Positions 1,807 through 61,100 of a stretch of DNA of 64,000 bases are shown in pieces; position 1 is the stretch's first letter; each line of letters begins with the position of its first letter. The notes under the pieces were generated by a model, which was not told the origin of the DNA, did no database searches, and saw nothing but the letters and a program-made list of their open reading frames with translations. A program made the translations under genes and the position numbers. Origin of the DNA: an uncultured Candidatus Altimarinota bacterium (lineage in GTDB: Bacteria; Patescibacteriota; Gracilibacteria; BD1-5; JAGOOR01); the NCBI GenBank assembly GCA_937924685.1, contig CALEVN010000026.1, positions 20,058 through 84,057 of the forward strand, given 5' to 3'.

Positions 1807-2982
1807 ATGCATTTTCGAGCACGTACATCTGGTTTTACACTGATTGAAGTCCTCGTGGGAGTAATGCTCTCGGGTCTTATTTTGACAGCTGCTTATAGCT
1901 CTTTTCAGGGTATTATGAAGAGTCAGATACGTCTCGGGTGAGTGATAGATATTCAGCGAAATCTTTTTTATCTCAATGAAAAGCTTGCATCTCTCATTCA
2001 CGGAGGAGGAACGCTCGATTATGAAGAGTATTTCAATCGTAGAATGCTCTGATATGGCCAAAGTTTTATACTAAAAGATATAAGTAATCCTGATAAATGA
2101 TCATGGTATACTTTTACAAATGTTTCAAAATATGGAAACGGTAGTTCTGGAGGACCAAAAATATATCTCTGTGGCAAAGATAGCTCAGTCGATCCAGATG
2201 CCTGTCTCGGAACAGGCGCTGTGTACGGCGCATCATCTACAGGGTCATCTTTTATTGATCTCGCCGCATCTCACACACTTCCCGGGTCACAACAAGCCTA
2301 CAGACAATACAGAGAGCTCTGATTTAACTATGCGTCGAGTCTCCCCGCACCTATCAGACTTCCTGCTATATTTCCAGCAGACGGCACACAGCCATGAAGC
2401 ATGCCCAAAATCAATACAAATGGTATTCCTGAGCTCTATCTCATAAAAAAACTCCCTGATGGCTCATACGAGCGCACGTACTTTCGTCATGTCTATGAAG
2501 AAGATCCAAACTACGATTATGCCAAAAATCCATGTACACCTCCAGCACTTGAATATTGCATAGGAAAAATACAAATGGCACGATTAGTCAGTTGTGACAA
2601 TGTCGACAAAACAGGAGCTCCAGATAAACCAGATGGCACTATTGATGCTTGGATACCAGAAGATGATTTTTCCAAATCAGGAACACCCGTATTGTGTAGC
2701 TCTATCGATACAGCGAGTAGTATAAATACAGCAAGTGATGATCTTCTCTGGGTCGATGTCAGCTCACCCGACATGAATATCACAAAGGTTTCTTTTCTCC
2801 CCTCTCCTCTCAAAATACCGAGCCTCATGTCTGGTACAGGTGAAGCAGAACCACGATCACCCATCATTCAGATGCATCTAGAAGTACAGCTCTCCGAAAG
2901 TGTACAGAGAAAATGACTACTAGGAGACGAATGAAATACACCAAGAATGCTCATAACTACATTTGATCTCGCAGACCTCTAA
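1807..2982 (+). CDS. type IV pilin-like protein with a prepilin-type N-terminal cleavage/methylation motif (391 aa)
   Basis: ATG at 1807. The N-terminus MHFRARTSG/FTLIEVLVGVMLSGLILTAAYSSF is the class III signal (G|FTLIE plus hydrophobic helix). Frame 1 is continuous to TAA 2980-2982 through seven TGAs. It joins track ORFs 1702..1941 and 2401..2916. Confidence 0.8.
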
Positions 2983-2985
2983 AAT

Positions 2986-3852
2986 ATGACTCCCAAAAAA
3001 AATCAATGATCTGCCCTCTTTGTCACTATTATGATTACGAGCATAGTATTGATTGTGGCTATGATATTACTCGAGCGTATAGTCCCCTATTCACGACAGA
3101 TCCGTGGTATGCAAGACTCTCTCCAGGCATACTATACAGCACGTAGTGAAGTAGAGGTTGGTCGTTTTCTCTTCTCAGAATGAGCTGAAACAAGTGGTAT
3201 ACGAAAAAATATAGATACTAGTGTATGACGTATTGGTGCAGATGAACCTATATCACTCTGAATGCCAAATATCAGTAGTTCCCAAACAGGCGAGTCAGTT
3301 GTGATTGCGCAAGACCGAACTATACCGATGAATGTATTGCTCTACGATAAGGATACAACTCCAGTCGGATTTGGCACCAGTAAAGGCAAGCCAGCGTACC
3401 ATCTTTTGAGCTCTTTTTGAGGCGGTCTCACGTTTGATCTGAGTGGCATCAATACCGGAAGTGGTTTTGGTATTACTATGGCCATTGATCCTGACACTCC
3501 TGGAGCGCAAACAATAGGTGTGGAATTTATATATAGCAAAGAAAGTGATAGTCCATTTTTTGGAAGTATCAATATAACTGGCAATGGAAACATATTTGAT
3601 GCAAAAAATGCTGATAGCGAGACGCTCTCCTATTTCCTCGCAGGTCAAAACTGTCAGGTAGCACACTGTTTTATGAAACTTCAGCTCAAAAACGCATCAC
3701 AGTGAGCTATAAATATCAATCTCTCTGTACCATCTTCATCCATCAATACCATACCTGACCTCAATGCAGTACTCGTGGCAGATGGCCTCTCTGATAACGG
3801 ACAATACCATGCTCGCATTATCGAGCTCATTCCTGTGACACAAAGCATATAA
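2986..3852 (+). CDS. minor-pilin/pseudopilin-like protein (PilX/GspK-like N-terminus, 288 aa)
   Basis: ATG at 2986, 3 nt after the previous stop. The N-terminus MTPKKNQ-G-SALFVTIMITSIVLIVAMILLE resembles the GSAL-plus-hydrophobic-helix start of pseudopilins. Six in-frame TGAs, TAA at 3850-3852. It contains track ORF 3478..3705. Confidence 0.55.
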
Positions 3853-3853
3853 A

Positions 3854-3884
3854 AGAAAGCTCCGATAGAATCGGAGCTTTTCTT
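3854..3884. terminator. bidirectional stem-loop terminator between convergent genes
   Basis: GAAAGCTCCGA-tagaa-TCGGAGCTTTC is flanked by A-rich sequence on the left and T-rich sequence on the right. It lies between the stop at 3852 (+) and the stop at 3901 (-). Confidence 0.7.
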
Positions 3885-3900
3885 AATATATACATACATA

Positions 3901-6564: not shown

Positions 6565-6786
6565 TTATTCTCCAAGGGTAAATGGAAGAAGAGCCATAAC
6601 ACGAGCTTTTTTAATAGCAGAAGAGAGCATCTTCTGAAATTTGAGGCTCACACCAGTATAGTAGCGAGGTGTGATTTTACCATAGCGAGAGAGGTATTTT
6701 TTGAGCGTGTCGACATCTTTATAGTCGATGTGCTTTACACCTGCAGCCTTGAATGGGCAGACGGTTTTGAGTTTTTTCTTAGACAT
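6565..6786 (-). CDS. rpsR: 30S ribosomal protein S18
   Basis: CPFKAAGVKHIDYKDVDTLKKYLSRYGKITPRYYTGVSLKFQKMLSSAIKKARVMALLP matches the S18 pattern. Confidence 0.9.
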   Translation of the reverse strand: MSKKKLKTVCPFKAAGVKHIDYKDVDTLKKYLSRYGKITPRYYTGVSLKFQKMLSSAIKKARVMALLPFTLGE

Positions 6787-12321: not shown

Positions 12322-12419
12322 AATAGAAAATATAAAAGTCAATACTCTTCCCTCTCTAAATAGTGTCTAGGAACTTTGAATTACGGGGCAATATCTGATA
12401 CGATGTTGATATAGAATTC

Positions 12420-15400
12420 ATGAAAAAAGCACTTATTCTCATATTCCTCGCCATTGGAGCAACTCTTTGTTTTGACGCACTCGCTCAGACGTGGTCATTT
12501 AGCTGTAATGGCAACAACTGTCTCAAAGCAGGTGTGGATGCAGCAGGACAATACATAGGGAAAAGCTCTGGGGTTGTCACTGGGAAAGGAATTTCTCAAG
12601 CAGTCCAGGATGTTATCAAATACTTTCTAACATTTCTTTCTGTCATCGCCGTTATCTACATCATGTGGGCTGGTGCTCAGATGCTCCTCTTTCCCTCAAG
12701 TGAAGAATCAAGCGAAAAAACAAAGAAGATTATTATCTCCGTCTTTCTCGGTGTCATCATTATCTGGTTTGCGTGGTGGATAGTGAGTACACTCTTTTAC
12801 CTTCTCAATAACAACAAGGTTGTCTCAAACATAGTACCAAAAGCCTACGCTGAAACTCAAATCCGAAATATTGACTTCACTACCTATAGCAACAAAATAC
12901 GTGCCCTCAAGACACAAATTACAAACGGCTATAATCCAGAAATAACAAAACAACTCAATATACTGGTCGATGGCGCATTTGATCATCTTCCTGACCGTGC
13001 AGATATTTTTGTAAATAGACAGCTCTATGACAAGGTCAAAAAGGCAATTGCCGACTACGATCTCCATCGGGCCGAGATAGATCGTGGCATTCTCGAAAAT
13101 GCTATTGATGAATTTCTTGAACGTGCAAAAACATTTTCTATCCAAGGACAAATAGGTTCCAATCCACCAAAAGGAGATGCTCCTCTTTCAGTAACTCTCG
13201 AAGCGCGAAATATGATTGATGAGAGTGGTACGGTCATTCCGGAAACAAATTTCAGTTGGTGGCTCCGCACTCCTGATGGACCAAAAGTTCTCTGACATGG
13301 AAAAACCATCAACTATGAATTTAAGGATGAAGGAACATTCACAGTCTATCTTACCGTTAATTCTGCGAGCAAAAATAGTCGTGGTTTTACTGATGTAATA
13401 AGCTTTGAAGATCAAACCATCATAGAAGTAGGACAACCAAAACTCAAATGGGTCATATTTTTCAACGAACAACTCGCATCAGATTCAATGAAAATACCAA
13501 CCCGAGATGCCTTGCAAAAAGTACTCATCGATGCAACTCAAACAAAATTCTCTAATGGATATACGATAGCCAAGACTGAATGGGACTTTGGTAATGGTAA
13601 GTGAGCCTCTCATGAATGAGTTCCTATCATAGAAGCTCAGGATTACAAAGAAGGAGATTTTAATGTAAAATTGACCCTCACTCGAAATGATGGAGAAACA
13701 TTTTCAAAAACTATCACGCTCAAGATAGGTGATCCTATAGCATCTATTGGTATCAACAATACCAAACCAAATAAAGGAGAAACTGTCGTATTTGAAGCAA
13801 AAAAAGCAACACAAGAAGGAGTTCAATATTCATGGGAAATTCGAAAATTTGGTGTAGAACAGCCTATCTTTTCGATGACAGGCCCTCGCATGGAGTATGC
13901 ATTTAAGGAAATAGGCCGTTTTAGTATAGCTCTGCTTTCAAGTAAAAGTGGTGTAATAGATAAGGAAACAGTGGAGGTAAATATCGAATCTCGTCCGCCA
14001 GTTGTACGATTTCTCGCAGAACCTCTCGGTCCAGAAACGCCAAATACATATACATTCGATGGTACTTCTACCTACGATCCTGATTATCCAGACAATCAAA
14101 GTCTAAAATACGAGTGGTTTGTGAATGATCGACCCGTAGAACTTTTTGATACCAATTCAGCTAATAGTCGATGAAATTTCACTTTTACCGAAATAGGAAC
14201 ACATCAGGTTGAGCTTCATGTCGTTGATGAAGAAGGGAAGTCGTCTGTATTTAAGAAAGCTATCACTATCAAGAGTCTCCTCTCTATAGATCTGAATATC
14301 AAACCTCAAGTAGCAAAACGAGGAGGAAAGGTAATACTCAGTGCCAACGCTAATAATGGAAACATTTACGAATGGACAATTGGATCAAAAGATACAACTG
14401 TCACAGAAACTGGTAGACATATTGTCTCTTTTGAAAAATCAGGCACATATCCTGTCACTCTCAAGGTAACAGACAGATATGGAAATATCAATTCTATTCA
14501 GAGAAAAATATACATCGTTGATGGCGATGCTCCATTTGCGGTCATACAGCTCTCCACTAAAAGCCTCCTTTCAGAAACACAAAAATGAGCATGTAGTGGA
14601 AATGACGCACTCATAGTAGACAGAGTAACTCCGGTGTCGCTCGTGGGTGACAAAAGTGTCAATGTTGGAGGCGGGACAACTGATCTTACATATTTCTGGA
14701 AAGTCTGATTGAATTCGAGTTCTTCTCAGAAAAATTTCTCTCATACTTTTGATGAACTTGGATGTGAAAAAATCACTCTCACTGTCAACGATAAGAAAAC
14801 AGGAGCATCTCAAACATCAGAAGAATGGGTCAAAGTCGTCAACATACCACCAAAATTCTCCGATATTCAGGTCAAAGTAGAAAACATTGATATGGATCCT
14901 ATGCGTATAAGCCTCCGTATGGAAGGAGCAAAAGATCCAGACGGAAATATAGCTTCATATACATGGTATTACTATACCAGTACTGACGAGCAACCTCAGG
15001 GATTCCGTATTACGACAAAACCAGAAACGAGTTTTACCCTCCCAAAAATAAACGGTCGATATTACTTCTCTGTTGTTATGGAGGACGCAAATGGTCTCAA
15101 AGTAGACACGCGTGATATATCAGAAGAAAAATTCTCGACTCCAGATCTTCTCGTCAATCAAAATATCTCAATGCCTATCATTGACTTCAAAGCAAATGGA
15201 ACTGACATAAAATATGGCGAACCGGTCGAGTTTTCTGTGAATGTGAAAAATGCGCTTGGACAAGATATATCAAAAGCAGCAGAATATCGATGGGATATAG
15301 ATGGCGATGGTTTTTATGATACAAAGACGTCTGATCCTCATTTTACCTATAAATACACGATACCGGGCGAATATCATCCAAAAGTAAAAGTCACTCATCG

Positions 15401-17633
15401 TGGTCTCTCAACAACCAAATTCATCACACTTAATGTCGTCAATCGTCTCAACCCTCAGGCTGCCATACAGGTTATAGGCGATAAAATAGTAGCCTATAAT
15501 ATGTCGACAGGCATCGTACAAAGTGTTGCATGGTTTGCGGACGATAAAAAAGTCTCAGAGAATAAGGACTATCTCATCTATTCAGTAAGTGATGGAACTT
15601 TTCCTACATCTATAAAAATACAAATCTCTGATGGAAAAGATACACAAGAGGCGACATTTCCTATAGCCCGAAATGCCAAAAATAAAACACTTTTGAAAAA
15701 AATAGAAAAGCCACTTATCGTGCTCACAAATGACACCAATGGTAATGTAGAAGAAGTACCTGACAACGTCATATGGAAGGATCCTCTCAAGCCTCTCTTT
15801 TTCTATCTCGGTGAATCGACAGGTGATATTCAATTTTATGCAATAGATAATGACATAGACATCGACACTGATCTGTCTGGCGGAAAAGATGATGACGCTG
15901 ATAATAAAGGGACAGCTTCATACAGAATGGGGCGCCCATACTCAGTCCCTATGGGAACAAAGCGTACAACGATTATGCGTCTTCGACTTCTCAAAAGTGA
16001 CGGAACAGAGATTGATTCGAGACAGATACGTGTCACTCGTGACTTTATAGCACCGATTGTAGATACAGAAAATCCAACTACAGTGATAAAATCACCGCAG
16101 GTATTCAATCTCTCAGCAGAAGATAAAGCACGTCTCGATAAACTTCAGGGTTTAGTTCAAAATGTACCTGATGAAGAACGAAAAGACCTCACACGCTACC
16201 TCGACCAACTTGGAGATATCTGGTATGACCGTGCTGATAGAGCTGAAACTCTTCTCCAGTTTTCACAAGCAGTAAATATCAGCAAATCTATGTCACCTGA
16301 GCTCAAGACTCGTATTCTTGAACAAGTAAACCTCATCTATACCCAGGGACAACAGGATGCACAAGAAAAGGAAATCGCCAAGAAAATGATCGCAGATTTT
16401 CTCGCAAAAAGCTCATATAAGAAAGAAATATTTGGCGATGGTACTGATAGTAATAGTGGGTTACTTGGCCAAATCATAGATAATCCCGAATACTATGAGC
16501 AAAATAAATCTATCGTCCAAAAAATATATGATGATTATATAAAATTCGATAAACAAATTTCTGATGAAGCAAAAGCCGTCATAAAAGATAAGCTCACGAT
16601 GCTTATAGGAAACCCTCCTGTTCAGACTACTACTCCGCCACCAGTCGTCACAGAAGAAAAAGTATCTCTATGGACAAAAATACAAACGAAGGTAACGGCC
16701 ATAGTAGGGGATAAAGGTCCTATTATTCTCTGGATTGGTATAGCAGTTATAGGTCTTCTCGGTCTCATGGTACTCGTCAAACTTTTCAGCGGATCAAGTC
16801 GTAGTACTTCTCATGAGAATGACCATCATGACGATCACAACGGAGGTCTCTCGACAACACCAGAAAATAATCATGGTCCAGACTGGCTCCATGCAGATGA
16901 TCAACATAATGATCACCACGACAATCATAGTACAGAATGAGATAGCCATGCTACAACTCCAGACTGGCTCAAGGAGACAGAATCTCCATTTGGCGAGGAA
17001 GACGTCCTTTCAAAGGAAGTCGCTGCCACAACAATTCACAATGATACAACAATCAAAACACCTGATTGGATGCACGACGAAACACACGTAACTCCGTCTG
17101 CACCAGAAAAAAAAGCAGAAACAGCTTCTGCTGATGTACCAGCTTGGTTACAGTCTGCACCAGAAACAGACACCAAAGCCCCCGTAGAAACAGTATCAAT
17201 TCCAGAAATACCAGCAGACACAACACCTCCTGCTGTCAGTCATGATGATGTCCCTGATTGGCTCAAATGAGCTGAACACACAGAGACAATAGATGAAACA
17301 AAAGAAACAGATGATTCATCAGCCCTCTTTGAAACAGAAAAAACATGAACAGATGATACCACTCCAGTTTCATCAACACCATCTCCATCGACTTCAGAAT
17401 CATCTGATCTTCCTGATTGGCTTGCATGAACTCATAACACAGAAAATGCAACTCCAGAAACTTGAAATATCACAGAACCAAAAGACAATAATGAGACATC
17501 TCAAGTACCTGCACCAAAACAGTCAAAAAAATCATCAAAAAAAGATGAACAATTGACGCCAGGAAACCATCTCATTGGGGCAGCAGAAGAGCTCATAGCG
17601 CCTGAATCAGATACTGATAACACTTCTACTTAA
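12420..17633 (+). CDS. giant (1737 aa) surface protein: signal peptide, two-TM pilin-like module, PKD-like repeat array, TM anchor, His/Asp-rich and PDWL-repeat tail
   Basis: I checked frame 0 codon by codon between track ORFs 12420..13295, 13671..14174, 14709..16940 and 17070..17270. Only TGA interrupts it, and it ends at TAA 17631-17633. PKD-like motifs include EWDFGNGK, YEWFVNDRP and YRWDIDGDGFYD. The TM anchor is IILWIGIAVIGLLGLMVLVKLF. Confidence 0.8.
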
Positions 17634-24783: not shown

Positions 24784-24866
24784 GTGAAAAACTAACTCCA
24801 AACAATGCTAATACCGTTGTAAAGAGCTATTCCTTGCAAAAGCCCAGCTGAATCTATCATATACAT

Positions 24867-26723: not shown

Positions 26724-26739
26724 TTTTTATTTTATTTTT

Positions 26740-29700: not shown

Positions 29701-29874
29701 ATAGTTAAAAAAACGAAAAAAAGTGTATTTGAGCCTGGCGAGTTAAATGCATTTTATGAACTCATTGTGCCTGTTATTCAATCTCAATACGGTTCTGAAG
29801 CTCTCTCAAAAGGGAAGACAATGATGAAAAATTTTGCTAAAAAAGGAGGAGTGATAGAAATAAAAACACAATAA
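26740..29874 (+). CDS. large polytopic membrane protein, DUF2339-like (1044 aa)
   Basis: Frame 1 joins track ORFs 26971..27432, 27448..27657, 28183..28491, 28546..29058 and 29368..29874, interrupted only by TGA codons. It has an acidic/Lys linker, then NPLVSWFAENTLAKIGGLLIFLAIIAFL and more than 20 hydrophobic segments. The start could instead be ATG 26971. Confidence 0.65.
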
Positions 29875-41959: not shown

Positions 41960-41963
41960 ATCT

Positions 41964-42824
41964 ATGGAACAGCATGTCGACATATCTCATCTCTCCGGCT
42001 ACCATACTGCAGCGACAGCGAGATATTTTGTCGAGTTTCATGGCGACAATGTCGAAGATATAAGAGCAGCAGCCAAGTTTGCCCAACAAATGAAGCTTCC
42101 GATACTGACTATCGCTGGTGGTAAAAACAGCCTTCTCGCTTTTGATGAATATCCAGGTCTTGTCATCTATAACTCGTCTGAGGGCTATGATCTCCAAAAT
42201 AAACACTTAAAAGCCCTCTCTGGTCAACCTATCTGGGAATTAGCCGAAGCTCTGGAGACAGAGCATGGCATAGATTTCTGGCATCGATTTCAGTGACTTC
42301 CGTGATCTGTCTGAGGTGCTGTATTTGGAAATGCTGGATGTTTTGGTCTAGAAATAGGGCCCTATGTCACATCGGTCGAGGTTCTCGATATGCAGACAGG
42401 AGAAATTCTTATAAAAAACCCAGAAGAATTGGTATTTGATTATCGATGGTCAGAGTGCAAGAATCATCCAGAATGGTTTATTATTTCGGCTGATTTTGAT
42501 CTGTCAGAGCTTCGTGAAAAGTATCATTCGGACGAAGAGCCTCTTCTCTGGCGAGAAAGAGTCCAGCCTGTCGGTCTCTCTTGTGGCTCATTTTTCAAAA
42601 ATCCAAGTCGTGAACAATCCGCCTGATTCTTGATTGAACAGGTTGGTCTCAAATGACATCGCCATAATGGTGCATATTTTTCTGACAAACATGCGAATTT
42701 CCTTATGTCTGACGGCACGGCGAAGTGGACAGACCTTGTCGAACTTGTCGAACTTGCACAGAAAAAAGTGATGGACAAATTTCAGATATCACTTATCCCC
42801 GAGGTCAGAATTATAAAAAATTAA
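41964..42824 (+). CDS. murB: UDP-N-acetylenolpyruvoylglucosamine reductase
   Basis: ATG at 41964. Frame 0 joins track ORFs 41775..42296 (its 3' part) and 42390..42626. Motifs are G-LP-G-SV-G-GAVFGNAGCFG, GSFFKNP, FLIEQVGLK-G-HRHNGAYFSDKHANF. It ends at TAA 42822-42824. Confidence 0.85.
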
Positions 42825-45237: not shown

Positions 45238-46209
45238 ATGAATATTTCAGACTTTTGACATGAGCTCACACATCAACTCAAGTCACTGCGACACATTTCT
45301 CTCATAGCCCATAAAAATCCAGATGGTGATGCTATGGGTGCGCTTGAGGGTATGCGTTGTTTGCTCTCGGATAATTTTCCTCATCTGGTAGTGGATGTTG
45401 TTATGCCGCAAGAAGATTTCGATGCCCATGTTTTCTGGGTTATGGGAAAGACGGAAGAAAATTTCTCAGACACTACTGATTGTATCATACTCCTCGATGC
45501 CCCACGGCTTACGAGAACTGCTCTGCCTCTTGAGGTATTTGCTGATAAAAAAGTACTCTGCATAGACCACCATGAATCGTTCGAAGATAGTATTCCTGGT
45601 TATGTCGATTCTCATGCGAGTGCGACATGTCTCATTTTGACGGAGATGGCACTCACTCTTGGCTGGAAAATCTCAGTGCAGGCTGCCACAGCTCTCCTCA
45701 TGGGTATTTATACAGATACAGGGGGCTTTATTCACAGAAGTACAGACACTCGGTCTTTTGTTGCAGCAGCTGAGCTCATGCGGTTAGGTGCTGATCAAGT
45801 ACGTATAAGTACGGAGGTCTTTGGTAACTACACTCTCCCATATTTGCATGATCTTGGTCGATGACTCTTGTCGATCGTTATTGTCGATGGTATAGCATGT
45901 CTCTTTCTCTGAGCCAATACCAATGCAGCCCTCAAAAACCACATTATAGGGTTCTTAAGTGGCCTCGCAGGTGTCGACATAGCCTGTGTCATGGTCGACA
46001 TAGAATGAGTCATCAAGTGCTCTTTTCGCACAAGAAAAGACACGATTGATGTCAATGAACTAGCAAAAAAACTCTGAGGCGGTGGCCACAAAAAAGCCTC
46101 TGGCTGTATCCTAGATGGACGTCTCCATGAGGGCATATTTCACTGGCAGTGACAGGAATATTCACCAACTACCTTTGCACAATTTATAAAAACTCTATGA
46201 CCACTCTAA
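45238..46209 (+). CDS. nrnA: DHH/DHHA1 phosphoesterase (NrnA-like oligoribonuclease/pAp phosphatase)
   Basis: ATG at 45238. Frame 1 joins to track ORF 45334..45864 and ends at TAA 46207-46209. Motifs are IAHKNPDGDAMGA, CIDHH, GIYTDTGGF and the DHHA1 motif G-GGGHKKASG. Confidence 0.7.
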
Positions 46210-47384
46210 GACTCCAAAAATATCTCTCCGAGTGTGGTGTGTGCTCACGTCGACATGCCGAAGAAGCTATCAAAAATGGCGAAGTTATCGTGAATGGTAT
46301 TCCTGCGCAGATAGGACAATCTATCGATCCAGAGGTCGACAAAATAGAATTCTCAGGCAAGCTCGTTCACAGAAGTGAGGCACTTGTCTACTATGCTATG
46401 AACAAGCCACGAGGCATCGAGACCACGTGTGCTCAAAAAGACGGAAAAAGCATTGTCGACATCATCGACACAAAGACACGAGTTTTCCCAATAGGTCGTC
46501 TCGATAAGGATTCCAGCGGTCTTATCCTCCTGACGAATGACGGTCGTCTGACACATCGATTGCTCCATCCCTCTTTCGAACACGAAAAAGAATATCTCGT
46601 GACGACGTATGGAAAAATAGACGATATCTCTCTCAGACAGATGAGTCAATGAGTGCGCTATACTATCACAGAAGGTCCTCGAACTTCGCCATCTTCGACA
46701 CGTTCGCCAACACAGAGATTCCCAGCTCCGAAAACACCTCTCGTACCAAAAAAATTCGTCCAAACTCAACCCTGTGAGATAAAGAGAGTCAGCTCCGATA
46801 CGTTTCGCATCATCCTCAAAGAAGGAAAGAATCGACAGATCCGTCGTATGGTCGAAGCCTGTGGACATCAAGTAAAAAAACTCAAACGTATTCGCATCGA
46901 GCACATCATGCTCGGTGACATGCCAGATGGTGCCTATCGTGAGCTCAAGCGTGGTGAGCGAGAAGAGCTTCTTCGACGTGGAGCACTTCCTCTCGTTGAT
47001 TTCGCACCTATTTCTGGCGAGGTTGTTCATGGCGATGGTCGTGGCCACAGTATAGGTTTTGCAACAGCGAATATAGTCTTTCCTGCTGGTGTAGTTCCAG
47101 ACAAGACATTTACATGTCGTGTGACCATCGATGGTGAGGTATTTCTCTGAGCAGGTTCATATCAGCCAAAAAAAGGACATTTCGAAGTGCATATTATTGA
47201 TTTTGATCGTGATATTTACGGAAAAAATATTCATATCGACATCATGGACATTATCCGAGATAATAGAGCATTTAGTTCTGTCGAAGAACTCAAAAATCAG
47301 ATCACAAAAGACGTCAATCATGTTCGTGCACACTGGCAGAGTCTCCTCAATAATCCAGAGGAGAAAGCAAAGAGAAGTAAGTAG
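46197..47384 (+). CDS. fusion protein: S4 domain + RsuA/RluB/RluF-type pseudouridine synthase + riboflavin kinase domain
   Basis: Frame 0 joins track ORFs 46149..46652, 46653..47150 and 47187..47384. The S4 domain is [31 protein letters not shown]. The synthase core has RLDKDSSGLILLTNDG and EGKNRQIRRM. Then, with no stop of any kind, comes ISGEVVHGDGRGHSIGFATANI...FEVHIIDFDRDIYGKNIHIDIMDIIRDNRAFSSVEELKNQITKD, which matches the RibF C-terminal kinase domain. Confidence 0.75.
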
Positions 47385-48046: not shown

Positions 48047-49141
48047 ATGGCTCAAATAGCCCTTCTCCATCCACAATGTGCTCGTCTCGGAGGTGCTATA
48101 AAAATGGTACTTCTGACGGCTCATGCACTCCAAAAACAGGGGCATGATGTTGTTCTGTACACCTTTGAACAGGATGAAGCATGTTTCCCAGACCTTCAGA
48201 AAAATCTCCGTATTGTCGTGCTCCCCTCTCGCACAGCTGGTATTCTGACAAAACCTCTTCAAATAGCCACTTTGGCGTATCAACTTCGACATGTAGACAC
48301 GATTATTGCCAATAACCCTCCGATGCAAATAGTTGCCGCTCTCACAAAGCTTTTTGTACCACGTATTCGTACTATTTGGTGGCATCACCATGCACCGTGG
48401 TACTATGACAGTTTTAAACCTGTAATACTTGCAAAAGCCATATTTGAAAAATTTTTTGTAATGCCCTTTATCGATGATATGGTTGCGACGAGCTACTATG
48501 TAGCCGATATTATCCAGGCATACTGTGGCCGCTCATCACAAGTGATACATCCAGTATTGGAGAGCATATCTGAGCCGATAACCCCAAAAATCACATCAAA
48601 TAATGGAGTAACTCTCTTTACGCATGGCCGTCTGGAAGAGGGAAAATGACTCGATATGATCGTGCGAGTGTATGAGAAAATCCGCCAAGAACACCCAAAT
48701 ATCAATCTGATCGTTGCTGGCATGGGAAAACTCGAGTCTTTTCTGCGAGAAAAAGGCATCACTGTCATTCCATTTCATAAAAGAGATACTTTTGTCGACA
48801 TCATGTCTGGGAAATATGGACACGTTTTATGAGTGTATTGTTCTTCTATAGATGCCTTTGGTATGGCATCTCTCGAGGCACAAATAGCATGAATGTCGAC
48901 ACTTATTCTCGACAGGGGTGGCGCATGAGAGACGATCGTGTCAAAAGATGACGACTCACTTGTCTGACATCTTGTCGACTCTGAAGATGACCTTTGTGCT
49001 AGCATACAATACTACATGGAGCATAAAAAATTTCACAAACATCTGTCAATTGTGAATTTTTCTCATCACAGAGACTATTTTAATGGGGAGAGATTATCCC
49101 ATGATTTGCTTATACTGATGAGCAAAAGTATGGTATCATAA
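48047..49141 (+). CDS. glycosyltransferase (GT-B fold, GT4-like)
   Basis: I checked frame 2 codon by codon from track ORF 48047..48649 to TAA 49139-49141; there are five TGAs. The C-terminal motif is VL-G-VYCSSIDAFGMASLEAQIA-G-MSTLILDRGGA-G-ETIV (the E..FG....EA..G pattern). Confidence 0.75.
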
Positions 49142-49518: not shown

Positions 49519-52500
49519 ATGCGTCAGATCCTTCGACAAATCGTCGCAGTTCTCGCGTTTGCTGGAATTACTATGAGCATCGCTCCTAGTACTTTCGCTG
49601 CAACATACAATGACTTGTCTGCTGCAAACAAACTCGCTACTGCAGGAATCGTAGTTGATCATTCAGCAGCTCCTGCTGAATATCGACTCGCTGATAATGT
49701 TCTCCGTCAGGAGGCTATCGGTGTTGCTGGTAAAGTGTCAGGTGTTATACCAAACACTCCAGTATCTTCATACTCTTGTATGAACAAGTTTAGTGATATT
49801 TCAGAAGCTTGGGTTTGCCGAGCTGCTGAACTCGGAGTTCAGGCTGGTTTTGTTAATGGTAACAACGCTAAGTTCCGACCTCGAGACAACGTATCACGAT
49901 ACGAGTCTCTCCTCTGGGCTATCAAATCTAACGGCATCTCTATCTCTGATACTTCTGTATCAGGTGTAGTAGCTCGTGCTGTAGAAGTTGGTATCATCGC
50001 TAACGCATCTTCATTCAACGCTACTACTTCTGCTACTCGTGGCGAAGTGTTCCGTTACAATGCTTACGCAATGGACTACAAAGCTGCTAACTCAAATGGA
50101 AATGGTAACAATGATATTCTCTGTCTTCTCGATCCTTCATTCTGTGGTAACAATGGAGGTCAAGTAGTTAACGGAAACGTCACTGTTGGTACTTCTGCTG
50201 CAAATCCTGGCGTTATGACTATCGCTACTGGTACAGCTCACAACACTGTCTTGGCATTCAACGTGTCAAACGGTTCTTCTGTTGCTGCTAACGTAACTGG
50301 TCTTCGCTTGACTAAAACTGGTTTCTTCGCTACTACAAATGTCTCAGGCATTGAAGTATTCGACGCTAACGGTGTTCGTCATGGAAATGTCGTTACTACT
50401 CTCGGTTCAAATGGTGTCGCTATGATGACATTCCCTACTGAACCTATTATGGTAGCTGCAGGTCAGACTGTTACTATCTTCGTCAAGGCTAACCTCTCTG
50501 GTACATCTTCTGGTACTATTGGCTTCAACGTCAATTCTGCTTCTGATGTTACTATCTCAGGTGGTACTGTCGGTGGTACATTCCCAATCGTCGGTAACCT
50601 CCACAACATCGTAAACGGTGCTGGTACTATCGGTACTGTCACTCTCGATGAAATGGCTGTTAACGCTTCTGGTGCTACATACAACGCAGATCCAGCGGCT
50701 TCTCAGGAAATCGCTAAATTCCAAGTTCGTGAGACATCAAGCAATGAAGACATCGTCCTCACTGGTCTCAAGCTCTGGAATAATGGTAATGCTTCTGCTA
50801 CTGACTACAAGGATGTTCAACTCGTTGATCAGACTGGTGCAGTCGTTGCTACAGCTCAACCTATGGGTCAAGTTGTTAGTTTTGTTCTTTCTACTCCTTA
50901 CTCAATCACTAAGGGTCAGACTAAGAACTTCACTGTTCGTGCTACTATCGTCAATGGTGCTTCTCGTACTATCCAGTTCACAGTCTACAACGACTACGAC
51001 CTCTACGTAAGAGGTGTGAGCACAGGAGCTACTCTCCTCGCTACTGCTGGTACTACTGACACATCATTCCCAATCGGTGACACTACTTCTACTTACAACA
51101 AAGTAACTATTGGTTCTGGTTCACTCATCTTCAATCGTGCTGTTGATTCATCTTCTACAGCTGTTACTCCTGGTGCTACAGATGTAGTTCTCGCGAAATA
51201 CACTGCTAAACCAGTTGGTGAAGATATGGAACTCCGAACAGTTAACTTCGGTATTGACCAAGATACAGGTGCTGTTGCTCTTACAGGTACAGTATTTGTT
51301 AAGGTTAATGGTGCTGTTGTTTACTCTGCTGCTGCAAATACTACTAACTTCCCAGTTGCTGGTACTGCTTCATCTCGTACACTCTCATCTTACCCTATCC
51401 TCACTGCAGGTGTAGAAAACACTATTGAAGTAATTGCTTCAATCAGCTCTTCTGCTACTGCTGCTGATGCATACCAGGTGAAGGCATTTGACATCACATC
51501 TACAAAACGACTCATCTCAAATGATATCGTTGACCCAACTGTTTCTACACAAGACGGTTTCAACCGAACTGTTAAGGCAGCTGCTGTCACAGTTACGACT
51601 CTCGCAACTCCTGTTGCTGGTTCTATCGTTCCTGGTACAAATGGTGTTAAACTCGCAAGCTTTGAATTCAATGCTAGCGCTTCTGGTGAAGATGTTCGTG
51701 TCACAGCTGTTACTGTTACTGATACGAAAGGAGGCTCTGCTGTCTATGCAGACATCTCTAACCTCGTAATGAAGGATGCATCTGGTGCTCAACTCACTAC
51801 TTCTTCTTCTACAGCGACAAATGCTAACACTGTTACATTTACATTCACAAATCCTATCATCGTAGGTCGTTCTGCTACTACTGTTATTAACCTCTTTGGT
51901 GATGTCAGAAGTAGTGCGACTGCTGGTGGCACTTCTGCATATGCTCATACATATAACATTAATGCTTCTGGTGATGTAACTGCTACTGGTAAAGACACTG
52001 GTAACACTATCGCGACTCCTACTGTTTCTGGTTCAGGCCAGGCTCAGAGAATCGTCTCTGGTGGTAACCTCAATGTCGCCACTGATTCAGGTGCTGGAAA
52101 AACTCCTTCACTTGCTCAAATCGTTCCAATTAACTCTGTAGACGGAGTCTATCTCGCTGCTCGCTTCTCATCTCAATTTGAAGCTCAGAAAGTTACATCT
52201 CTTACTCTCAAAGCTACTGGTACAGCACTCGTTCAGAACAACCTCAAGAACATCCGTCTCTACGCACAATCTGGTACTGGTCCACTCCTTGGATCTACTG
52301 CTGCATTTGCTACGACAAATCAGTTCTCTAGCTGTTCTTCAAACGTATGTTCTTACACATGGACTGCTACAGACAACCTCCTCCCTGCCGTTATTGATCC
52401 TTCTTCTCCTATGACTATCTTCGTCAAGGCTGATATCCAAGGTGAAAATACAGCTAAGCTCGGAAATGACTTCTACTTCTCTATCACAAATGATGGTACA

Positions 52501-53103
52501 GATGTAGTTGCTAAGGGTGCTGTTTCTTCTACTGCTCCTACATACGACTCAAACACTGCTGCTAACTCTACTGCTAAGTCTTATATCAACCCATTCAATG
52601 TCGTAGCGACAGGCGAATCACCAACAAATGGTTCAAATGTTCTCTCGTCTGTGGGTTCTGGTACTCAGCTTGCTCGATTCAAGGTTACAAATAATGGTTC
52701 TGCTCAAATTACTTTGACAGATGCTACATTTACTAACTCTGGCTCTCATACTGGTACTGATGAAAGATATACTGTCTATGCATCAAGTGAAAACTCAAAT
52801 GACTACACTGCTAATACGCTCGAAGCGTCTTCAACAGATACTGTAGCATTTGGTAGTCTTACAACTCCTGTAACAATCAATGGTGGATCTTACCGATACA
52901 TCACGGTTGCTATTACAACAGTTGGATCGACTGCTTCAGGTGATACATATTCACTTTCTATCGCTAGTCTTGGTGATCTCAAGTACTCTGTTACTGAATC
53001 AGCTCTCGGCTACGATGCTAACCAGGATAATGATCAGGGCGATACTGTCACTTCACTCCGTGTTGATGGTAAACCAGCTCTCGGAACTATCCAGAAGCAA
53101 TAA
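49519..53103 (+). CDS. S-layer-like protein: signal peptide, SLH-like module, ~1000-aa beta-rich Thr/Ser/Ala/Gly/Val/Asn region
   Basis: Uninterrupted 1194-aa ORF with no TGA. The signal peptide is MRQILRQIVAVLAFAGITMSIAPSTFA. The SLH-like motif is FSDISEAWVCRAAELGVQAGFVNGNNAKFRPRDNVSRYESLLWAI. Codon choice is strongly T-ending (GGT, GCT, ACT, TCT, GTT), and Cys residues are few and confined to the N-terminal part and one cluster near residue 960. Confidence 0.75.
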   Translation: MRQILRQIVAVLAFAGITMSIAPSTFAATYNDLSAANKLATAGIVVDHSAAPAEYRLADNVLRQEAIGVAGKVSGVIPNTPVSSYSCMNKFSDISEAWVCRAAELGVQAGFVNGNNAKFRPRDNVSRYESLLWAIKSNGISISDTSVSGVVARAVEVGIIANASSFNATTSATRGEVFRYNAYAMDYKAANSNGNGNNDILCLLDPSFCGNNGGQVVNGNVTVGTSAANPGVMTIATGTAHNTVLAFNVSNGSSVAANVTGLRLTKTGFFATTNVSGIEVFDANGVRHGNVVTTLGSNGVAMMTFPTEPIMVAAGQTVTIFVKANLSGTSSGTIGFNVNSASDVTISGGTVGGTFPIVGNLHNIVNGAGTIGTVTLDEMAVNASGATYNADPAASQEIAKFQVRETSSNEDIVLTGLKLWNNGNASATDYKDVQLVDQTGAVVATAQPMGQVVSFVLSTPYSITKGQTKNFTVRATIVNGASRTIQFTVYNDYDLYVRGVSTGATLLATAGTTDTSFPIGDTTSTYNKVTIGSGSLIFNRAVDSSSTAVTPGATDVVLAKYTAKPVGEDMELRTVNFGIDQDTGAVALTGTVFVKVNGAVVYSAAANTTNFPVAGTASSRTLSSYPILTAGVENTIEVIASISSSATAADAYQVKAFDITSTKRLISNDIVDPTVSTQDGFNRTVKAAAVTVTTLATPVAGSIVPGTNGVKLASFEFNASASGEDVRVTAVTVTDTKGGSAVYADISNLVMKDASGAQLTTSSSTATNANTVTFTFTNPIIVGRSATTVINLFGDVRSSATAGGTSAYAHTYNINASGDVTATGKDTGNTIATPTVSGSGQAQRIVSGGNLNVATDSGAGKTPSLAQIVPINSVDGVYLAARFSSQFEAQKVTSLTLKATGTALVQNNLKNIRLYAQSGTGPLLGSTAAFATTNQFSSCSSNVCSYTWTATDNLLPAVIDPSSPMTIFVKADIQGENTAKLGNDFYFSITNDGTDVVAKGAVSSTAPTYDSNTAANSTAKSYINPFNVVATGESPTNGSNVLSSVGSGTQLARFKVTNNGSAQITLTDATFTNSGSHTGTDERYTVYASSENSNDYTANTLEASSTDTVAFGSLTTPVTINGGSYRYITVAITTVGSTASGDTYSLSIASLGDLKYSVTESALGYDANQDNDQGDTVTSLRVDGKPALGTIQKQ

Positions 53104-55894: not shown

Positions 55895-55921
55895 TTTTTA
55901 TCTGTTTTTCTGTTGAGTTGT

Positions 55922-56995
55922 ATGGATTCTTCCCTTTTCTTTGCTCTGCTGCATAGTATTGGACTCACACACAAGAAACTTCGACTGCTTCGACGAGAAA
56001 ATGTCCAATATTATTACGAAAATATATCTGTTTCTGACCTTATAGAAGCGGGTTATGGAGTAGACACAGCGAGTCGCATTATAGACAAAAAGACCGAGAA
56101 ACTTGTCGAAGATGTCTACAATGTAATCGTAAAAAATAATATCCGAGTCGTTCATAGGGATGATTCAGAGTATCCTTCACTCCTTGCAACCATACCAAAT
56201 GCGCCCACAATTCTCTATGTCCGATGACAATTGCCCCCAAATGATGCACTTATCTCTGTCGTTGGTTCTCGAAAACACTCTCAGTATAGTAGTGATTGCT
56301 TGGCAAAAATACTTCCAGAGCTTATCAAATCTGGTTATGGTATCGTGAGCGGAGGAGCCTACGGTATCGACAGTGTCGCTCATGAGATAACTCTCAAAAA
56401 TGGAGGGTATACCGCAGTAGTCTTTGGTTCTGGTGTCGATGTTGTCTATCCTCCTTCGAATCGTCGATTATTTGATGAAGTGGTCGTATCAGGAGGAGCA
56501 CTGATATCTCAATTTCCACTTGGCACACTCGCTGAGCCCTATAATTTTCCAATTCGAAATGAAGTGGTGGCGAGTATGAGCCGAGGGACTCTCATCGCTG
56601 AAGCGTGAGAAGACTCGGGCACTCTCATCACAGCCCGTCTCGCTCTTGAGGCAAATCGTGATGTATTTGTCATACCAGCTGATATGACTCGATCCTCTGC
56701 GCTCGGAAGCAATAGACTCATCCGTGATGGTCTCGGAAAGCTCATCACAGAAGCAAATGACATTCTCGGTGAATATCAGATTGTCGACAAGCAATTATCG
56801 CTCCTCGCTCAGGAGCCAGTATTTACCGATGCTCTCCAAGAGTCTCTCTATGAACTTTTATGTCTCGATGCACTTGGTATCGATATGATTTCTGAGAGAC
56901 TCCAAGTCGAACCAATGCTCGTCATCAATGCGCTTTCTCTCATGGAGATAGATGGTGTCGTGACCAGTCAGAGAGGTGTATATAGAGTTATTTAG
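55922..56995 (+). CDS. dprA: DNA processing protein DprA (Smf)
   Basis: ATG at 55922 (the track starts at an upstream TTG). Frame 2 joins track ORFs 55913..56227, 56231..56608 and 56684..56995. Motifs are VVGSRKHS.Y, GIVSGGAYGIDSVAH, YPPSNRRLF, FPLGT...PYNFPIRNEVVA and AEA-G-EDSGTLITA. Confidence 0.9.
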
Positions 56996-57533: not shown

Positions 57534-57535
57534 GT

Positions 57536-57934
57536 TTAGACGATAAAGGAGGTTATTTTTTTGGCGATCATCGACATATTTTCAGGATCTTCCGTGTGAG
57601 CGTTGGTATTATTTATCTGTCCACTTTGATGCAGCGGGATGAGATGGAGATGGGCATGATCAGTAATACCATATCCCTCTATCAGAAAACCTATACGTTC
57701 ACAATTTGTAGCTTTTTTTATGGCTGGCGCAATGATATTTTTTGAGACCTTCATGAGGTGCTCATAGAGTTCATCAGGGATATCGAGGATATCTCCTATT
57801 TCCATTTTTGGTATGACGAGGGTATGTCCGAGTGTATGAGGCTCGATGGTCAAAAAAGCATATATTTTCTCATCCTCGTATACTTTGTATGAGGGTATTT
57901 CTCAGGCTATGATTTTAGTAAAAATGGAAGTCAT
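57536..57934 (-). CDS. HIT-family (histidine triad) protein
   Basis: ATG at 57932-57934 gives [28 protein letters not shown], followed by the triad DHAHLHLIP. One TGA joins this to track ORF 57536..57853. Confidence 0.85.
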
Positions 57935-58178
57935 GAGAGAATTATAATGGTAACTCATCGAAATCAAACATCTGAAAATTAGTTTAGTACTAAAATATAT
58001 CTGATTCCTATTTTAAAAAGTTATTTCCTCTTTGTACTTTTGTTTCCAAAAGTACCAAAAGAATTTAGGGGCGAAAAACTCGGCCAGTTTTATCGTCTAT
58101 CAGTTCTGTATTCATCGACCTTAAACAGTTCCGCCCCTAAAAACCCATTTCTGTTTTTCATGTTTTTGTCATACTGCC

Positions 58179-61100
58179 TTATTTCATTTTTCCTTCTTTG
58201 ACGAAGAGCTTGTAGAGAACAGGAACGATAAAGAGTTTCAAAACACCAGACGTGGTCAAACCGGCGACGAGTGTGATGGCGAGAGATTGCCATGTCCCAG
58301 GAACGAGAGCAAGGGGGATATTTCCCATAATCGTCGTAAATGAGGTCAGAAATATTGGCTCAAAGCGTGCTCGGCCAGCATCGAGAATGGCGTCATCGAT
58401 AGAGAGCCCAGATTTTCGATTCAGATTGATTTTATCGATAAGAACGATGGAATTATTCACCACGATACCAAAAAGCGCAACGAGGCCTATCAGTGATGGA
58501 AATGAGAGGGTATTGTGAGTGAGTGTCAGACCAAAGAAAACGCCGATGAGAGAGAGGGGGATAGGAGCGAGGATGAGGACAGCTTGTTTATATGAATTGA
58601 ATTGCATGACAATTGTACCGACGATAAAGAGTAACCCAAAACACATAGCTACCAAGAGGGACTGTATTGATTTGGCGTTTTCATCGTTGACACCTCCGAT
58701 GACGAAATCGTATCCTTTGAGATTTTTTGCGACACTGGCTTGATAGTCTTTGCTGCGTGCGTTGAATTCTTTGAGAAGACCAGCAGCATTTGTCGTTGCA
58801 TCGGCTCAGACAGTAAGACTGACAGTTCGTTTTTGATCGATACGTGTAATAGAGCTGACAGATGATTCGAGGGAGTTTTTCATGAGATCCCCGAGAAACA
58901 CATACTGTCCTTTTTGATTTTTGATCTTGAGCCCTTTGATCTTCGACAGAGTGTCGACTGACTGTCTATCGTACCATGCACGGACGACTATTTCATCAGA
59001 TCCCTTGAAGACTTTTGTGACGTCGAGACCATCGACAGCCATCTTCAAAAAGAGTGCGACTTGCGATGCAGAGAGCCCATTTATCTGGAGTTTCTGAATA
59101 TCAAACTCAAAACTGAATTCGAGCGGTGTCGACTGAACAGATGTGGCGATATTCACGGCTCCAGGGATAGTTTCTGCGATAGCCTTTATATCCTTGAGGA
59201 TTTTATTCAATTTATGTGAATCATCACCCGTGACTCTGACCTCGAGATCTGCTCCAGCTGGAGGACCTCCCTTGAGCTCGACCACAGAGAGCTTCACTCC
59301 AGGAATCTCTATTTTCTTCAGAGATGTACGCAGACGATCAGCAAAATGAGAGGAGGTTTCAGTACGATTCTCATCTTTTTTCTTGAGATTGATAGTGATA
59401 TTCGCCAGATTCGTAGATGAACCTGAACCACCTGCTCGGATATTACCAGTCGCAGCCGCACTTCCCACAGTGGTGGTGAAACTTCGAACAATCTCCGGGT
59501 CTTCTTTTTGAAGAAGAGATTCTACTTTTGCTATCTGCGCATCGGTTACTTCGAGTCTCTGGCCTGGTTCTGCTTCGAGGTTTACAAAGACGATATCCTG
59601 ATTATCAGCTGGGAAGAATTCTGTCCTGAGAAGTCCTGTTATCGGGAATGACAAGGATATAAAAAACAGGCCGACAATAGCTCCGAGAAATCTCGACAAT
59701 CGACCACGAGAGGCGAGGAGGTAAGTGAGAAAATTTTCATATTTTACGATGAGAGGCTCAAACGAGACAAATCGTCGTGTCCAGAACGTTTCTTTTTCAT
59801 TTTTTCCATGCTTATGAGAATTATCGCCCTGGAAAAAGAGTGTCAGAGCTGGGACTATTGTCAGAGATAACACAAGCGACAAGAGTAGTGTCGTCATGAT
59901 GACAAATGGTATTGAGAAGATAAATTTCCCGATAATACCAGTCATAAAGAGCATCGCTGCAAATATCCAAACGGTGGTGAGAGTAGTAGCTATGTCTGGC
60001 CATTTCAAATCCCGAAGAGCAAGGAGCATCGCTTGTCTCGCAGTAAATTTGTTTGATTTATAGTATTGATCAAAACCAGTGACGATGAGAATGGCATCAT
60101 CCACGAGCAAACCAAGAGAGAGAACGAGTGAAAAGAGAGACAAAAAGTTCAATGTCTGTCCTGCAAGTTTCAGTACGACAAAAGTCAGCAAAAATACAAT
60201 CGGAATGGTGAGCGTTGGAACAAATGCCTCCTTGAGACCGATAAAGAGGAAAAGTGTTCCACAAACAAGGATGAGGGTAATAGCGAAATCACGAGTGAGT
60301 CCACTGAGATCGCTTCGTATTTGTTCTGAGAGGTCTGTTGTCGTGTTGACTTTGACATCATCAGGGATGACTTTGCTCGCTTGAAGTTCTTTGATTTTTG
60401 CCTGTCATTCGTCAACGAGGTCGATGATAGAACCTCCAGATTTTTTTATCACTGAAAGTGTGACTGCTGTGACAGGCTCACTTCCTCGAAGAGAGAGACG
60501 AGATCTCGTCTCCCGTTTTTTTGTTGCTTCTTGTACGTCAGCGACATCGCGGAGAAATATGACACCAGGATCGCCAATGTTCGCCACGGCTATATCCCGC
60601 AATTTCTGGACACTATAAAAACGATTGTCGACATTCATCGTATGTTTGTACTTGTCGACAACATAGTCTCCGATTGGCAGTGTCGTATTGGTGGCTTGAA
60701 GAGTTTGATTGATTTGTTCGGGTGTGAGTCCGTACATCTCGAGTTTTTTTGGGTCATAGGTTATGCTAAACTCTATCTCGTCACCACCAGTGATATTCAC
60801 ACTTGAGACATTTGGTATTTTTTCTATTTCATCTTTTATGTCTTTGGCTATCTCATTGAGTTCCAGAGGTGTCTTGTTTCAGGCAAGAGAAAAGACCCAG
60901 ATTGGCGTATCACGGAAGTTGAGTTCTTTTACTGTTGGTTCTTTAGCTGATTCAGGAAAGTCTTTTTTCGCCAAATCCACTTGTTCTTTGACATCTTGGA
61001 GTGCTTTTTTCATGTCGACACCAGTCTTGAATTGAAGCGTCACGCTGGCGAAACTATTCTGAGATGTCGATGTCATCTTGTCTATATCCTTTACTTTGCT

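Follow-up and report, generated by a model that had tools for sequence, protein, structure and literature searches.

Why should one palindromic octamer, TGTCGACA, recur across unrelated genes in 64,000 nucleotides of contig CALEVN010000026.1 (hereafter the window), assembled from an uncultured Candidatus Altimarinota bacterium? A sequence-only reading of this DNA had listed 21 copies and put the octamer forward as a candidate DNA-level signal, such as an uptake or recognition sequence. We find a signal of that kind, carried by a shorter word: the true unit is the strand-symmetric, non-palindromic hexamer TCGACA/TGTCGA with TCGCCA as an accepted variant, and the octamer is its by-product, namely two inverted TCGACA copies placed back-to-back so that they share TCGA. 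The hexamer is maintained at the DNA level: it is in excess in all reading frames and on both strands, synonymous positions included, and recurs at the same sites in deeply diverged genomes.

The window contains 160 hexamer copies (2.5 per kb, ~2500 per Mb; 86 as TCGACA on the plus strand, 74 as TGTCGA) where base composition predicts 28.4, a ~5.6-fold excess, together with 63 copies of the variant TCGCCA/TGGCGA. Gene-based tests used purpose-built, approximate gene calls under genetic code 25 (42 genes, 89% coding). Upon shuffling of synonymous codons, 47.0 copies were expected in genes and 136 were observed (z=13), making TCGACA the strongest hexamer outlier; the runners-up, CGACAC and TCGCCA, are its own variants, and unrelated hexamers reach z~6. 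Under the same shuffle, the top outliers with a non-trivial count for word lengths of four to eight were GACA, CGACA, TCGACA, GTCGACA and TGTCGACA, all sub-words of the octamer. With respect to the sense strand, copies split into 69 TCGACA and 67 TGTCGA, and observed-to-expected ratios exceed one in every frame, being 5.0, 2.7 and 1.7 (6 vs 3.5) for TCGACA and 2.0 (1 vs 0.5), 7.5 and 2.3 for TGTCGA. This sense/antisense symmetry excludes a cause at the mRNA or translation level, and likewise rules out polar words such as Chi or the FtsK-orienting polar sequences (KOPS).

The octamer count itself holds up. All 21 copies are exact matches, against 1.20 ± 1.02 (largest 4) in dinucleotide-preserving shuffles of the window, and the initial rough estimate of about one copy per 64 kb agrees with an order-0 Markov expectation of 0.9 sites (window GC content, 41.1%). 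The core GTCGAC was found 42 times, as had been counted by eye (12.0 expected), with both the T and the A flank present in 21 of these. Markov expectations for the octamer climb with order (0.9, 1.3, 1.9, 4.6, 10 and 13 sites for orders 0-5), which indicates that its excess is assembled from shorter sub-words; the absorption of the signal at high orders reflects models trained on the over-represented sub-words themselves. No conserved flank extends beyond the eight bases among the 21 copies, and a longer repeat or mobile element is ruled out by their unrelated surroundings. Eighteen copies lie inside called genes and the other three in open reading frames (ORFs) missed by the caller, encoding ComF-like, MurB-like and RsuA-like proteins.

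Comparisons drew on relatives found via UvrA, all of them uncultured metagenome-assembled genomes (MAGs). Relative L001 (OZ246415.1, a 1.05-Mb chromosome) has a UvrA of 94-95% protein identity and shares ~82% nucleotide identity in aligned DNA; UvrA of L002-L004 is 78-83% identical, and that of further Gracilibacteria MAGs ~50%. The octamer sites, which as palindromes have no strand, are listed with the strand of the host gene and the peptide encoded:

2601-2608: pilin-like gene 1702-2982(+), AAT GTC GAC AAA (N-V-D-K)
6708-6715: small gene 6565-6786(-), S18-like by eye, D-V-D-T
15502-15509: large surface-protein gene 12363-17633(+), ATG TCG ACA (M-S-T)
18216-18223: gene 17639-19975(+), GTG TCG ACA (V-S-T)
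22350-22357: ClpB-like gene 22165-24783(+), D-V-D-T
23288-23295: ClpB-like gene, ATG TCG ACA (M-S-T)
23496-23503: ClpB-like gene, I-V-D-I
25898-25905: gene 24834-26723(+), S-V-D-N
38458-38465: membrane-protein gene 37320-38549(+), L-S-T; same in L001
38571-38578: ComF-like ORF 38257-39069(+), S-V-D-K; same in L001
40981-40988: uvrA 39128-41959(+), S-V-D-I; same in L001, one mismatch in L004
41975-41982: MurB-like ORF 41775-42824(+), H-V-D-I; TGTCGATA in L001, TGTAGACA in L002 and L003
44218-44225: immunoglobulin (Ig)-like surface-protein gene 42947-45160(+), V-V-D-T
45972-45979: DHH/NrnA-like gene 45238-46209(+), G-V-D-I; same in L001, L003 and L004
46454-46461: RsuA-like ORF within 45861-47384(+), I-V-D-I; same in L001 and L004; first member of a 9-bp-spaced pair
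48793-48800: glycosyltransferase gene 48047-49141(+), F-V-D-I; not conserved in L001
48894-48901: glycosyltransferase gene 48047-49141(+), M-S-T; same in L001
56782-56789: dprA 55913-56995(+), I-V-D-K
60626-60633: AcrB-like gene 58179-61367(-), N-V-D-N
60653-60660: AcrB-like gene 58179-61367(-), V-V-D-K
61013-61020: AcrB-like gene 58179-61367(-), G-V-D-M

The copies indeed occupy several codon phases, 16 as xxT-GTC-GAC-Axx (Val-Asp) and five as xTG-TCG-ACA (Ser-Thr), with TGT-CGA-CAx not represented. A residual bias in composition, codon usage or codon context that involves no reader of the DNA might be suspected here, in view of the 13 of 21 octamers expected at Markov order 5, the favoured codon pairs GTC-GAC (26 vs 9.5) and TCG-ACA (24 vs 4.2), and a TCGA-rich composition that is general in these genomes. 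This explanation is scarcely credible and largely refuted. Shuffling synonymous codons within each gene leaves 2.59 ± 1.52 octamers in called genes (maximum 9 in 1000) against the 18 observed (z=9.5), and shuffling whole codons leaves 1.11; the lower whole-codon value implies that the protein sequences themselves are enriched for contexts able to encode the octamer. The excess also persists with codon pairs held fixed, a control under which the sequence-only reading had allowed that the signal might vanish: 13 of the 26 GTC-GAC pairs are flanked by a preceding T and a following A (2.98 expected, p=1.4e-6), and 5 of the 24 TCG-ACA pairs are preceded by xTG (1.06 expected, p=0.0035). Equal sense and antisense enrichment with ratios above one in each phase, the conservation of synonymous sites within the hexamer between species, and a 10-11 bp phasing that crosses reading frames (both described below) argue against such a bias as well. 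Together, the synonymous shuffles, the tests by phase and the codon-pair-conditional test rule out a dipeptide, codon-usage or codon-pair origin. The initial view of a DNA-level signal stands: it is found in several phases and on either strand, withstands both the synonymous and the codon-pair-conditional null, and is common to relatives.

The choice of the palindrome as the unit was not borne out. An octamer functional in its own right could be the site of a dimeric protein or the target of a SalI/TaqI-type restriction-modification pair, with hexamers as decayed or partial copies. In line with this, TGTCGACA (328 per Mb, 50% GC) ties the top octamer count if palindromes are counted on both strands (42 vs 41 for ATATTTTT), while by sites it is the second-commonest octamer (21 vs 41 for ATATTTTT). 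TG lies upstream of 74 and CA downstream of 86 of the 491 TCGA sites in the window; independent half-sites on a shared TCGA predict 12.96 octamers where 21 are seen (1.6-fold; odds ratio 2.15, p=0.012), and L004 has 5 vs 2.0 (odds ratio 4.4, p=0.03). The back-to-back arrangement is mildly favoured, only in the window's own genus. Against the octamer as unit, 139 of the 160 hexamers lie outside octamers, and their upstream bases are diverse rather than one-off versions of TG. Moreover, octamers fall below the half-site product in L001 (7 vs 9.2; L003 has 4 vs 3.5) and are deficient in a distant clade (L006, L008-L011 and L021; 5 vs about 20, including 0 vs 3.9 in L010 and 3 vs 7.1 in L006), despite the hexamer being 3-5-fold enriched and the top word there. 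Restriction targets, too, are normally avoided and here are enriched. Overall, a functional octamer is very unlikely. In relatives the octamer recurs at individual sites, with six of the eight aligned octamers identical in L001 and turnover relative to L003 and L004, but shows no consistent excess. Nor are the copies evenly spaced, the coefficient of variation of the gaps being ~1.1 (hand calculation from coordinates).

Around TCGACA, the signal is limited to six bases and the flanks are weak; a C(-5)A(-4) signal upstream represents another, degenerate hexamer copy on that side. As for one-off variants, TCGCCA is enriched 2.3-fold, and TTGACA and TCAACA are mildly depleted (0.71 and 0.83).

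Same-strand copies are helically phased. Pooled over non-orthologous loci, distances between same-strand TCGMCA copies (TCGACA or TCGCCA) accumulate at 9 (38 pairs), 10 (21), 11 (34), 12 (8), 21 (27), 22 (8) and 33 bp (8), with ~1.5 expected per distance. In L006, TCGMCAN5TCGMCA occurs 16 times (0.01 expected), and in the window the N3 version, i.e. 9-bp spacing, occurs 12 times (0.02 expected). Of the distant clade's 150 commonest hexamers, TCGACA and words overlapping it are the only ones to show the effect, with 33 TCGACA pairs in phase and none off phase. The pairs are dispersed over many genes rather than forming one tandem array, and 68 control loci outside Gracilibacteria show essentially none of the paired pattern. 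Distances of 10 and 11 bp within coding DNA, including uvrA, cannot come from peptide repeats, as the phasing cuts across frames. An amphipathic-helix (i+3/i+7) origin of the 9- and 21-bp spacings was considered; it is partial in the window and fails for the 10-11 bp spacings of the distant clade. The same-strand pairs of the window are:

22364-22378, minus strand: pair TCGCCAactTCGACA, 9-bp spacing
24548-24562, minus strand: pair TCGACAcctTCGACA
31341-31355, plus strand: pair TCGACActtTCGACA
33585-33599, plus strand: pair TCGCCAcgtTCGACA
39730-39744, minus strand: pair TCGACAcgaTCGACA in uvrA (V-D-R-V-E), at the same offset in L001, L002, L003 and L004
40319-40333, plus strand: pair TCGACAtgtTCGACA in uvrA
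42041-42055, minus strand: pair TCGACAttgTCGCCA, joined by a third copy at a distance of 21 bp from the first
42737-42751, minus strand: pair TCGACAagtTCGACA
46456-46470, plus strand: pair TCGACAtcaTCGACA, overlapping the octamer at 46454
46686-46709, plus strand: triple TCGCCAtctTCGACAcgtTCGCCA, two 9-bp spacings in succession
61492-61506, plus strand: pair TCGCCAtctTCGACA

L006 carries a 22-bp unit, TCGACAcaactTCGCCAatata, in two tandem copies (positions 2188-2231), and the spacer CAACT recurs between hexamer copies in L006, L010 and the window.

Conservation of individual sites was assessed over 19.7 kb aligned between the window and L001, at 81.6% nucleotide identity (59% at third codon positions). 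Of the 77 aligned hexamer sites, 58 are identical in L001, whereas rates for the same gene and codon position predict 20.8 (z=9.7), and TCGACA ranks first of 368 hexamers for conservation; baselines are 33% for all hexamers, 30% for those containing CG and 42% for others containing TCGA. Third positions within motifs are identical in 89 of 110 cases (63 expected), and the codon TCG is kept in 67% of cases within motifs vs 13% outside (p=0.001). The retention reaches much further than L001: both positive clades, at 52-54% protein identity in UvrA, have 14 aligned uvrA sites in common, several of which occur in 6-8 lineages. In uvrA, positive lineages carry 16-35 TCGMCA sites, except for L002 (8) and L004 (14), and the negative L005 and L016 carry 5 and 2, respectively.

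Among relatives, the hexamer has a patchy distribution. The top hexamer is TCGACA or TCGCCA in the window, L001, L006, L008, L009, L010, L011 and L021; TCGACA ranks second in L003, third in L002, and outside the top four in L004, where it is nonetheless 3.1-fold enriched (first-order Markov). In L005, L007, L012-L016 and L024, it does not figure among the top words. A rough, single-gene UvrA tree resolves two positive clades, with the motif-negative L005 as sister to one of them. Hexamer density in these clades is 2-5 per kb, rising to 6-12 per kb in uvrA, and the clades differ in whether TCGACA or TCGCCA dominates and in the 5′ flank (TG for the window's own clade, CT for the distant one). 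L002 (17.3 kb, GC 37.6%) is nested in the window clade and has one octamer and 20 hexamers, with variants such as TGTAGACA in place of the orthologous window octamers, and gives the impression of a lineage losing the hexamer as its GC content falls. In L014-L016 (GC 31-33%), the top hexamers are TGGACA in L014 and TAGACA in L016, both one-off TCGACA variants, and CTATTA in L015. TAGACA and TGGACA may be AT-shifted dialects; counts of the paired pattern are too low to judge.

On taxonomy, L001, L002 and L004 (OZ246415.1, CAYUVP010000011.1 and CAZFTF010000011.1) are labelled 'Candidatus Peribacteria', a class of Peregrinibacteriota. This label looks doubtful, as their UvrA is 78-94% identical to that of a TGA=Gly genome, their uvrA is open under table 25, and relatives include Gracilibacteria-named records.

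What keeps the word in place? Tentatively, we propose from these sequence patterns that the hexamer is the recognition site of an abundant, lineage-specific DNA-binding or DNA-modifying protein and is kept by purifying selection. Same-strand copies one or two helical turns apart would present the same face of the DNA, and the predicted reader would bind that face in short cooperative arrays; candidates include a nucleoid-associated or chromosome-marking protein, possibly one that reads a TCGA-centred modification. Taken further, these data quite possibly, though at less than even chances, point to a previously undescribed, genome-wide TCGMCA code in two code-25 Gracilibacteria clades, selected even at silent positions throughout their divergence, whose one-turn spacing would let a clade-specific protein coat or mark one face of the chromosome. 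That protein would constitute a new system of nucleoid organisation or self-DNA recognition in ultra-small episymbiotic bacteria, and the octamer would be nothing more than hexamers placed back-to-back.

Several points weigh against this proposal. For the nucleoid proteins known so far, binding sites are usually degenerate and AT-rich and show no base-by-base conservation. The 64-kb window holds no methyltransferase, Vsr-like or candidate reader gene, and the data comprise this window plus about 170 kb from relatives, mostly around uvrA, a limited sample. The window clade uses almost only 9 and 21 bp, and the window itself only these two distances, at which synonymous shuffling already raises the pair function (7.1 and 4.9), so that the spacing is partly carried by protein sequence; the window's excess above the shuffle at 9 and 21 bp is ~3-fold (7 vs 2.2 and 5 vs 1.5). 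Finally, drive coupled to recognition, through repair or uptake, can also yield conservation with no function for the hexamer, and conservation alone cannot separate selection from such drive.

One form of such drive is DNA uptake or self-recognition, in which a pilus-associated or periplasmic receptor would prefer TCGMCA-bearing DNA, and uptake followed by recombination would spread the word by molecular drive, by analogy with the DNA uptake sequence (DUS) of Neisseria and the uptake signal sequence (USS) of Pasteurellaceae. The hexamer is suitably strand-symmetric, present in all frames and able to shape amino-acid contexts; its lineage-specific forms on a conserved core (TCGACA/TCGCCA, TG/CT flanks) resemble DUS dialects (PMC3630211), and its copies are more closely packed in conserved housekeeping and repair genes than in genes for surface proteins, much as DUS accumulates in the core genome (PMC3630211). 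Housekeeping and repair genes carry 3-6 times the expected number of copies. No excess is seen in the surface-layer (S-layer)-like gene 49519-53103 (1 vs 1.9), which as first noted also lacks any TGTCGACA, in the large surface-protein gene 12363-17633 (5 vs 3.9) or in the membrane-protein gene 26695-29874 (0 vs 0.9), and the Ig-like surface-protein gene 42947-45160 does show one (11 vs 3.0). The field as a whole is laid out as follows:

1-64000, both strands: hexamer field, dense in the ClpB, RadA, UvrB, UvrA, NrnA-like, glycosyltransferase, DprA and AcrB-like genes
1-22 kb: sparse
12363-17633, 26695-29874 and 49519-53103: genes in which the field is sparse

The competence-type genes that had been recognised by eye are also present, namely those for a pilin-like protein that bears an N-methylation motif, a ComF-like phosphoribosyltransferase (PRTase) and DprA (E=2e-65), alongside a RadA-type ATPase. 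On the other hand, a word of 6 bp with ~5.6-fold enrichment over base composition is a poor discriminator of self DNA compared with the 9-12 bp of DUS and USS; helically phased direct copies are atypical of known uptake sequences; and no pairing at terminators was seen, all 21 octamers lying within ORFs. We regard an uptake origin as unlikely.

A second form would be a repair ratchet linked to methylation, as in Elhai's model for the cyanobacterial highly iterated palindrome (HIP): an orphan methyltransferase acting at TCGA or a longer site would bias mismatch correction, and surrounding words would accumulate with no function of their own. The hexamer is built on TCGA, itself ~2-fold enriched in the window (491 vs 234 by base composition) and enriched in most Gracilibacteria loci examined; one-off variants such as TCGCCA are enriched too; and SeqA-type readers of methylated sites bind site pairs on one helical face. 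Likewise, the patchy distribution, in which L005 has apparently lost the word and L002 shows its decay, is like the loss and replacement of HIP1 in cyanobacteria (PMC4390886). The gene content of the window speaks against a ratchet, with neither a methyltransferase nor a Vsr-like gene. A deamination-repair signature of the very-short-patch (VSP) type was sought among one-off variants and window-L001 differences at motif sites, and no dominant C/T path (nor, for the differences, a G/A path) was found in these small numbers; the deamination-type words TTGACA and TCAACA are only mildly depleted. Phasing at 9-11 bp is not obviously predicted by a ratchet, and base-exact retention of 14 uvrA sites at ~52% protein identity is more readily explained by selection. 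Overall, this mechanism appears rather improbable.

The window reads TGA as glycine (genetic code 25) and is thus Gracilibacteria-type. Allowing TGA as a sense codon raises the number of ORFs of at least 300 amino acids from 9 to 45, and UvrA (39128-41959) has in-frame TGA on invariant glycines, e.g. I-G-PGAG; uvrA is open under table 25 in 10 relatives. TGA supplies 162 of 1420 Gly codons, and ORF lists made with the standard code split nearly every gene. Two surface genes stand out in this respect: the Ig-like gene 42947-45160 and the S-layer-like gene 49519-53103 (the latter without a Pfam match) have no TGA among 82 and 109 Gly codons, respectively (p=5e-5 and 2e-6), which reflects either TGA avoidance in highly expressed genes or another origin.

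Other compositional features of the window were recorded in passing. Strong depletion affects CTAG (33 found, 234 expected) and TTAA (110 and 482, respectively), and the most depleted hexamers under the synonymous shuffle all contain TAA or TAG, the sole stop codons remaining in code 25. Under a second-order Markov model, AATAAT/ATTATT takes second place among over-represented hexamers in the window and L001-L004 (102 vs 41); it is no outlier under the synonymous shuffle and so probably reflects amino-acid content (Asn/Ile runs). Around position 57000, gene orientation changes convergently from mostly plus (7.7-57 kb) to minus (57.5-64 kb), and GC skew changes sign there, the coding strand being C-rich on either side; the skew seems to track the coding strand, not obviously replication.

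Very few lineages are known to have DNA words that are both hyper-abundant and kept by selection, namely HIP1 in cyanobacteria and DUS/USS in two proteobacterial families, and the function of HIP1 has been debated for 30 years. The hexamer adds a second, independent case among bacteria that belong to the Candidate Phyla Radiation (CPR), one with a clear half-site architecture, base-exact deep conservation and helical phasing. As the phasing points to cooperative protein binding, it offers a sharper handle on what such words do, and the patchy presence among relatives should make the reader protein findable through phylogenetic profiling. In practical terms, the hexamer could help, as a signature of the lineage, to bin contigs of Gracilibacteria and to reveal foreign DNA within such contigs. 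A literature search returned no paper tying TGTCGACA or TCGACA to genome over-representation, and the phrase 'uptake sequence' is not used in the top-ranked papers of a search that combined it with these taxa.

The closest known system is cyanobacterial HIP1, followed by DUS/USS, and the hexamer departs from defining features of each, being not primarily palindromic, not GC-rich and shorter than an uptake sequence. Like HIP1 (GCGATCGC), it is a short, hugely over-represented word that lies within genes in several frames, has lineage-specific variants, is lost in some lineages and involves a 4-6 bp palindromic core typical of methyltransferase targets. HIP sites, including one-off variants, are conserved between genomes beyond control words and codon conservation (PMC5861425), and the hexamer behaves in the same way (58/77 vs 20.8). 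HIPs reach ~1000-2000 copies per Mb and have at least 75% GC except TCGATCGA (PMC4390886), whereas the word described here has 50% GC, with the octamer at ~330 and the hexamer at ~2500 per Mb. Here, moreover, a non-palindromic hexamer is the unit and the palindrome is secondary, so that the octamer is not the singular word that a HIP is; phasing occurs at 9-11 and 21-22 bp rather than at the 10-90 kb periodicity reported for HIP1; and the host belongs to the CPR/Gracilibacteria and uses code 25, with no cognate methyltransferase found within the window.

DUS and USS are words of 9-12 nt, present in thousands of copies at about 1 per kb. The hexamer shares with them strand symmetry, a density of about one or more per kb, occurrence in all frames, tolerance in coding DNA and an influence on peptides, as well as an association with competence and pilus genes in the window. 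DUS in Neisseriaceae also form dialects and accumulate in the core genome (PMC3630211), and the hexamer may similarly have clade-specific dialects on a conserved core (by the UvrA tree only, and with motif-negative L005 beside a positive clade) and is likewise denser in conserved genes. It differs in having 6 bp, 2.5 copies per kb, a much lower enrichment over chance, helically phased direct copies and no terminator-type inverted pairs in the data examined. To our knowledge, neither DUS nor USS has been described as having direct copies in helical phase.

Chi and KOPS, too, are short over-represented words maintained by selection across the chromosome, but are strongly skewed to one strand, unlike the hexamer (69 vs 67 sense/antisense; 86 vs 74 plus/minus). 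Targets of restriction-modification systems (SalI GTCGAC, TaqI TCGA) differ in that both words are enriched here (42 vs 12; 491 vs 234) and the enzyme genes were not found in the window. With regard to arrangement, the nearest counterparts are SeqA on GATC pairs and OmpR/PhoB-type direct repeats at 10-11 bp, in which helically phased short sites are bound by one protein. As there, direct copies of a 4-7 bp word lie one or two turns apart on the same face of the helix; those sites are found at the origin or at promoters, or are palindromic, whereas the TCGMCA pairs are scattered through coding DNA.

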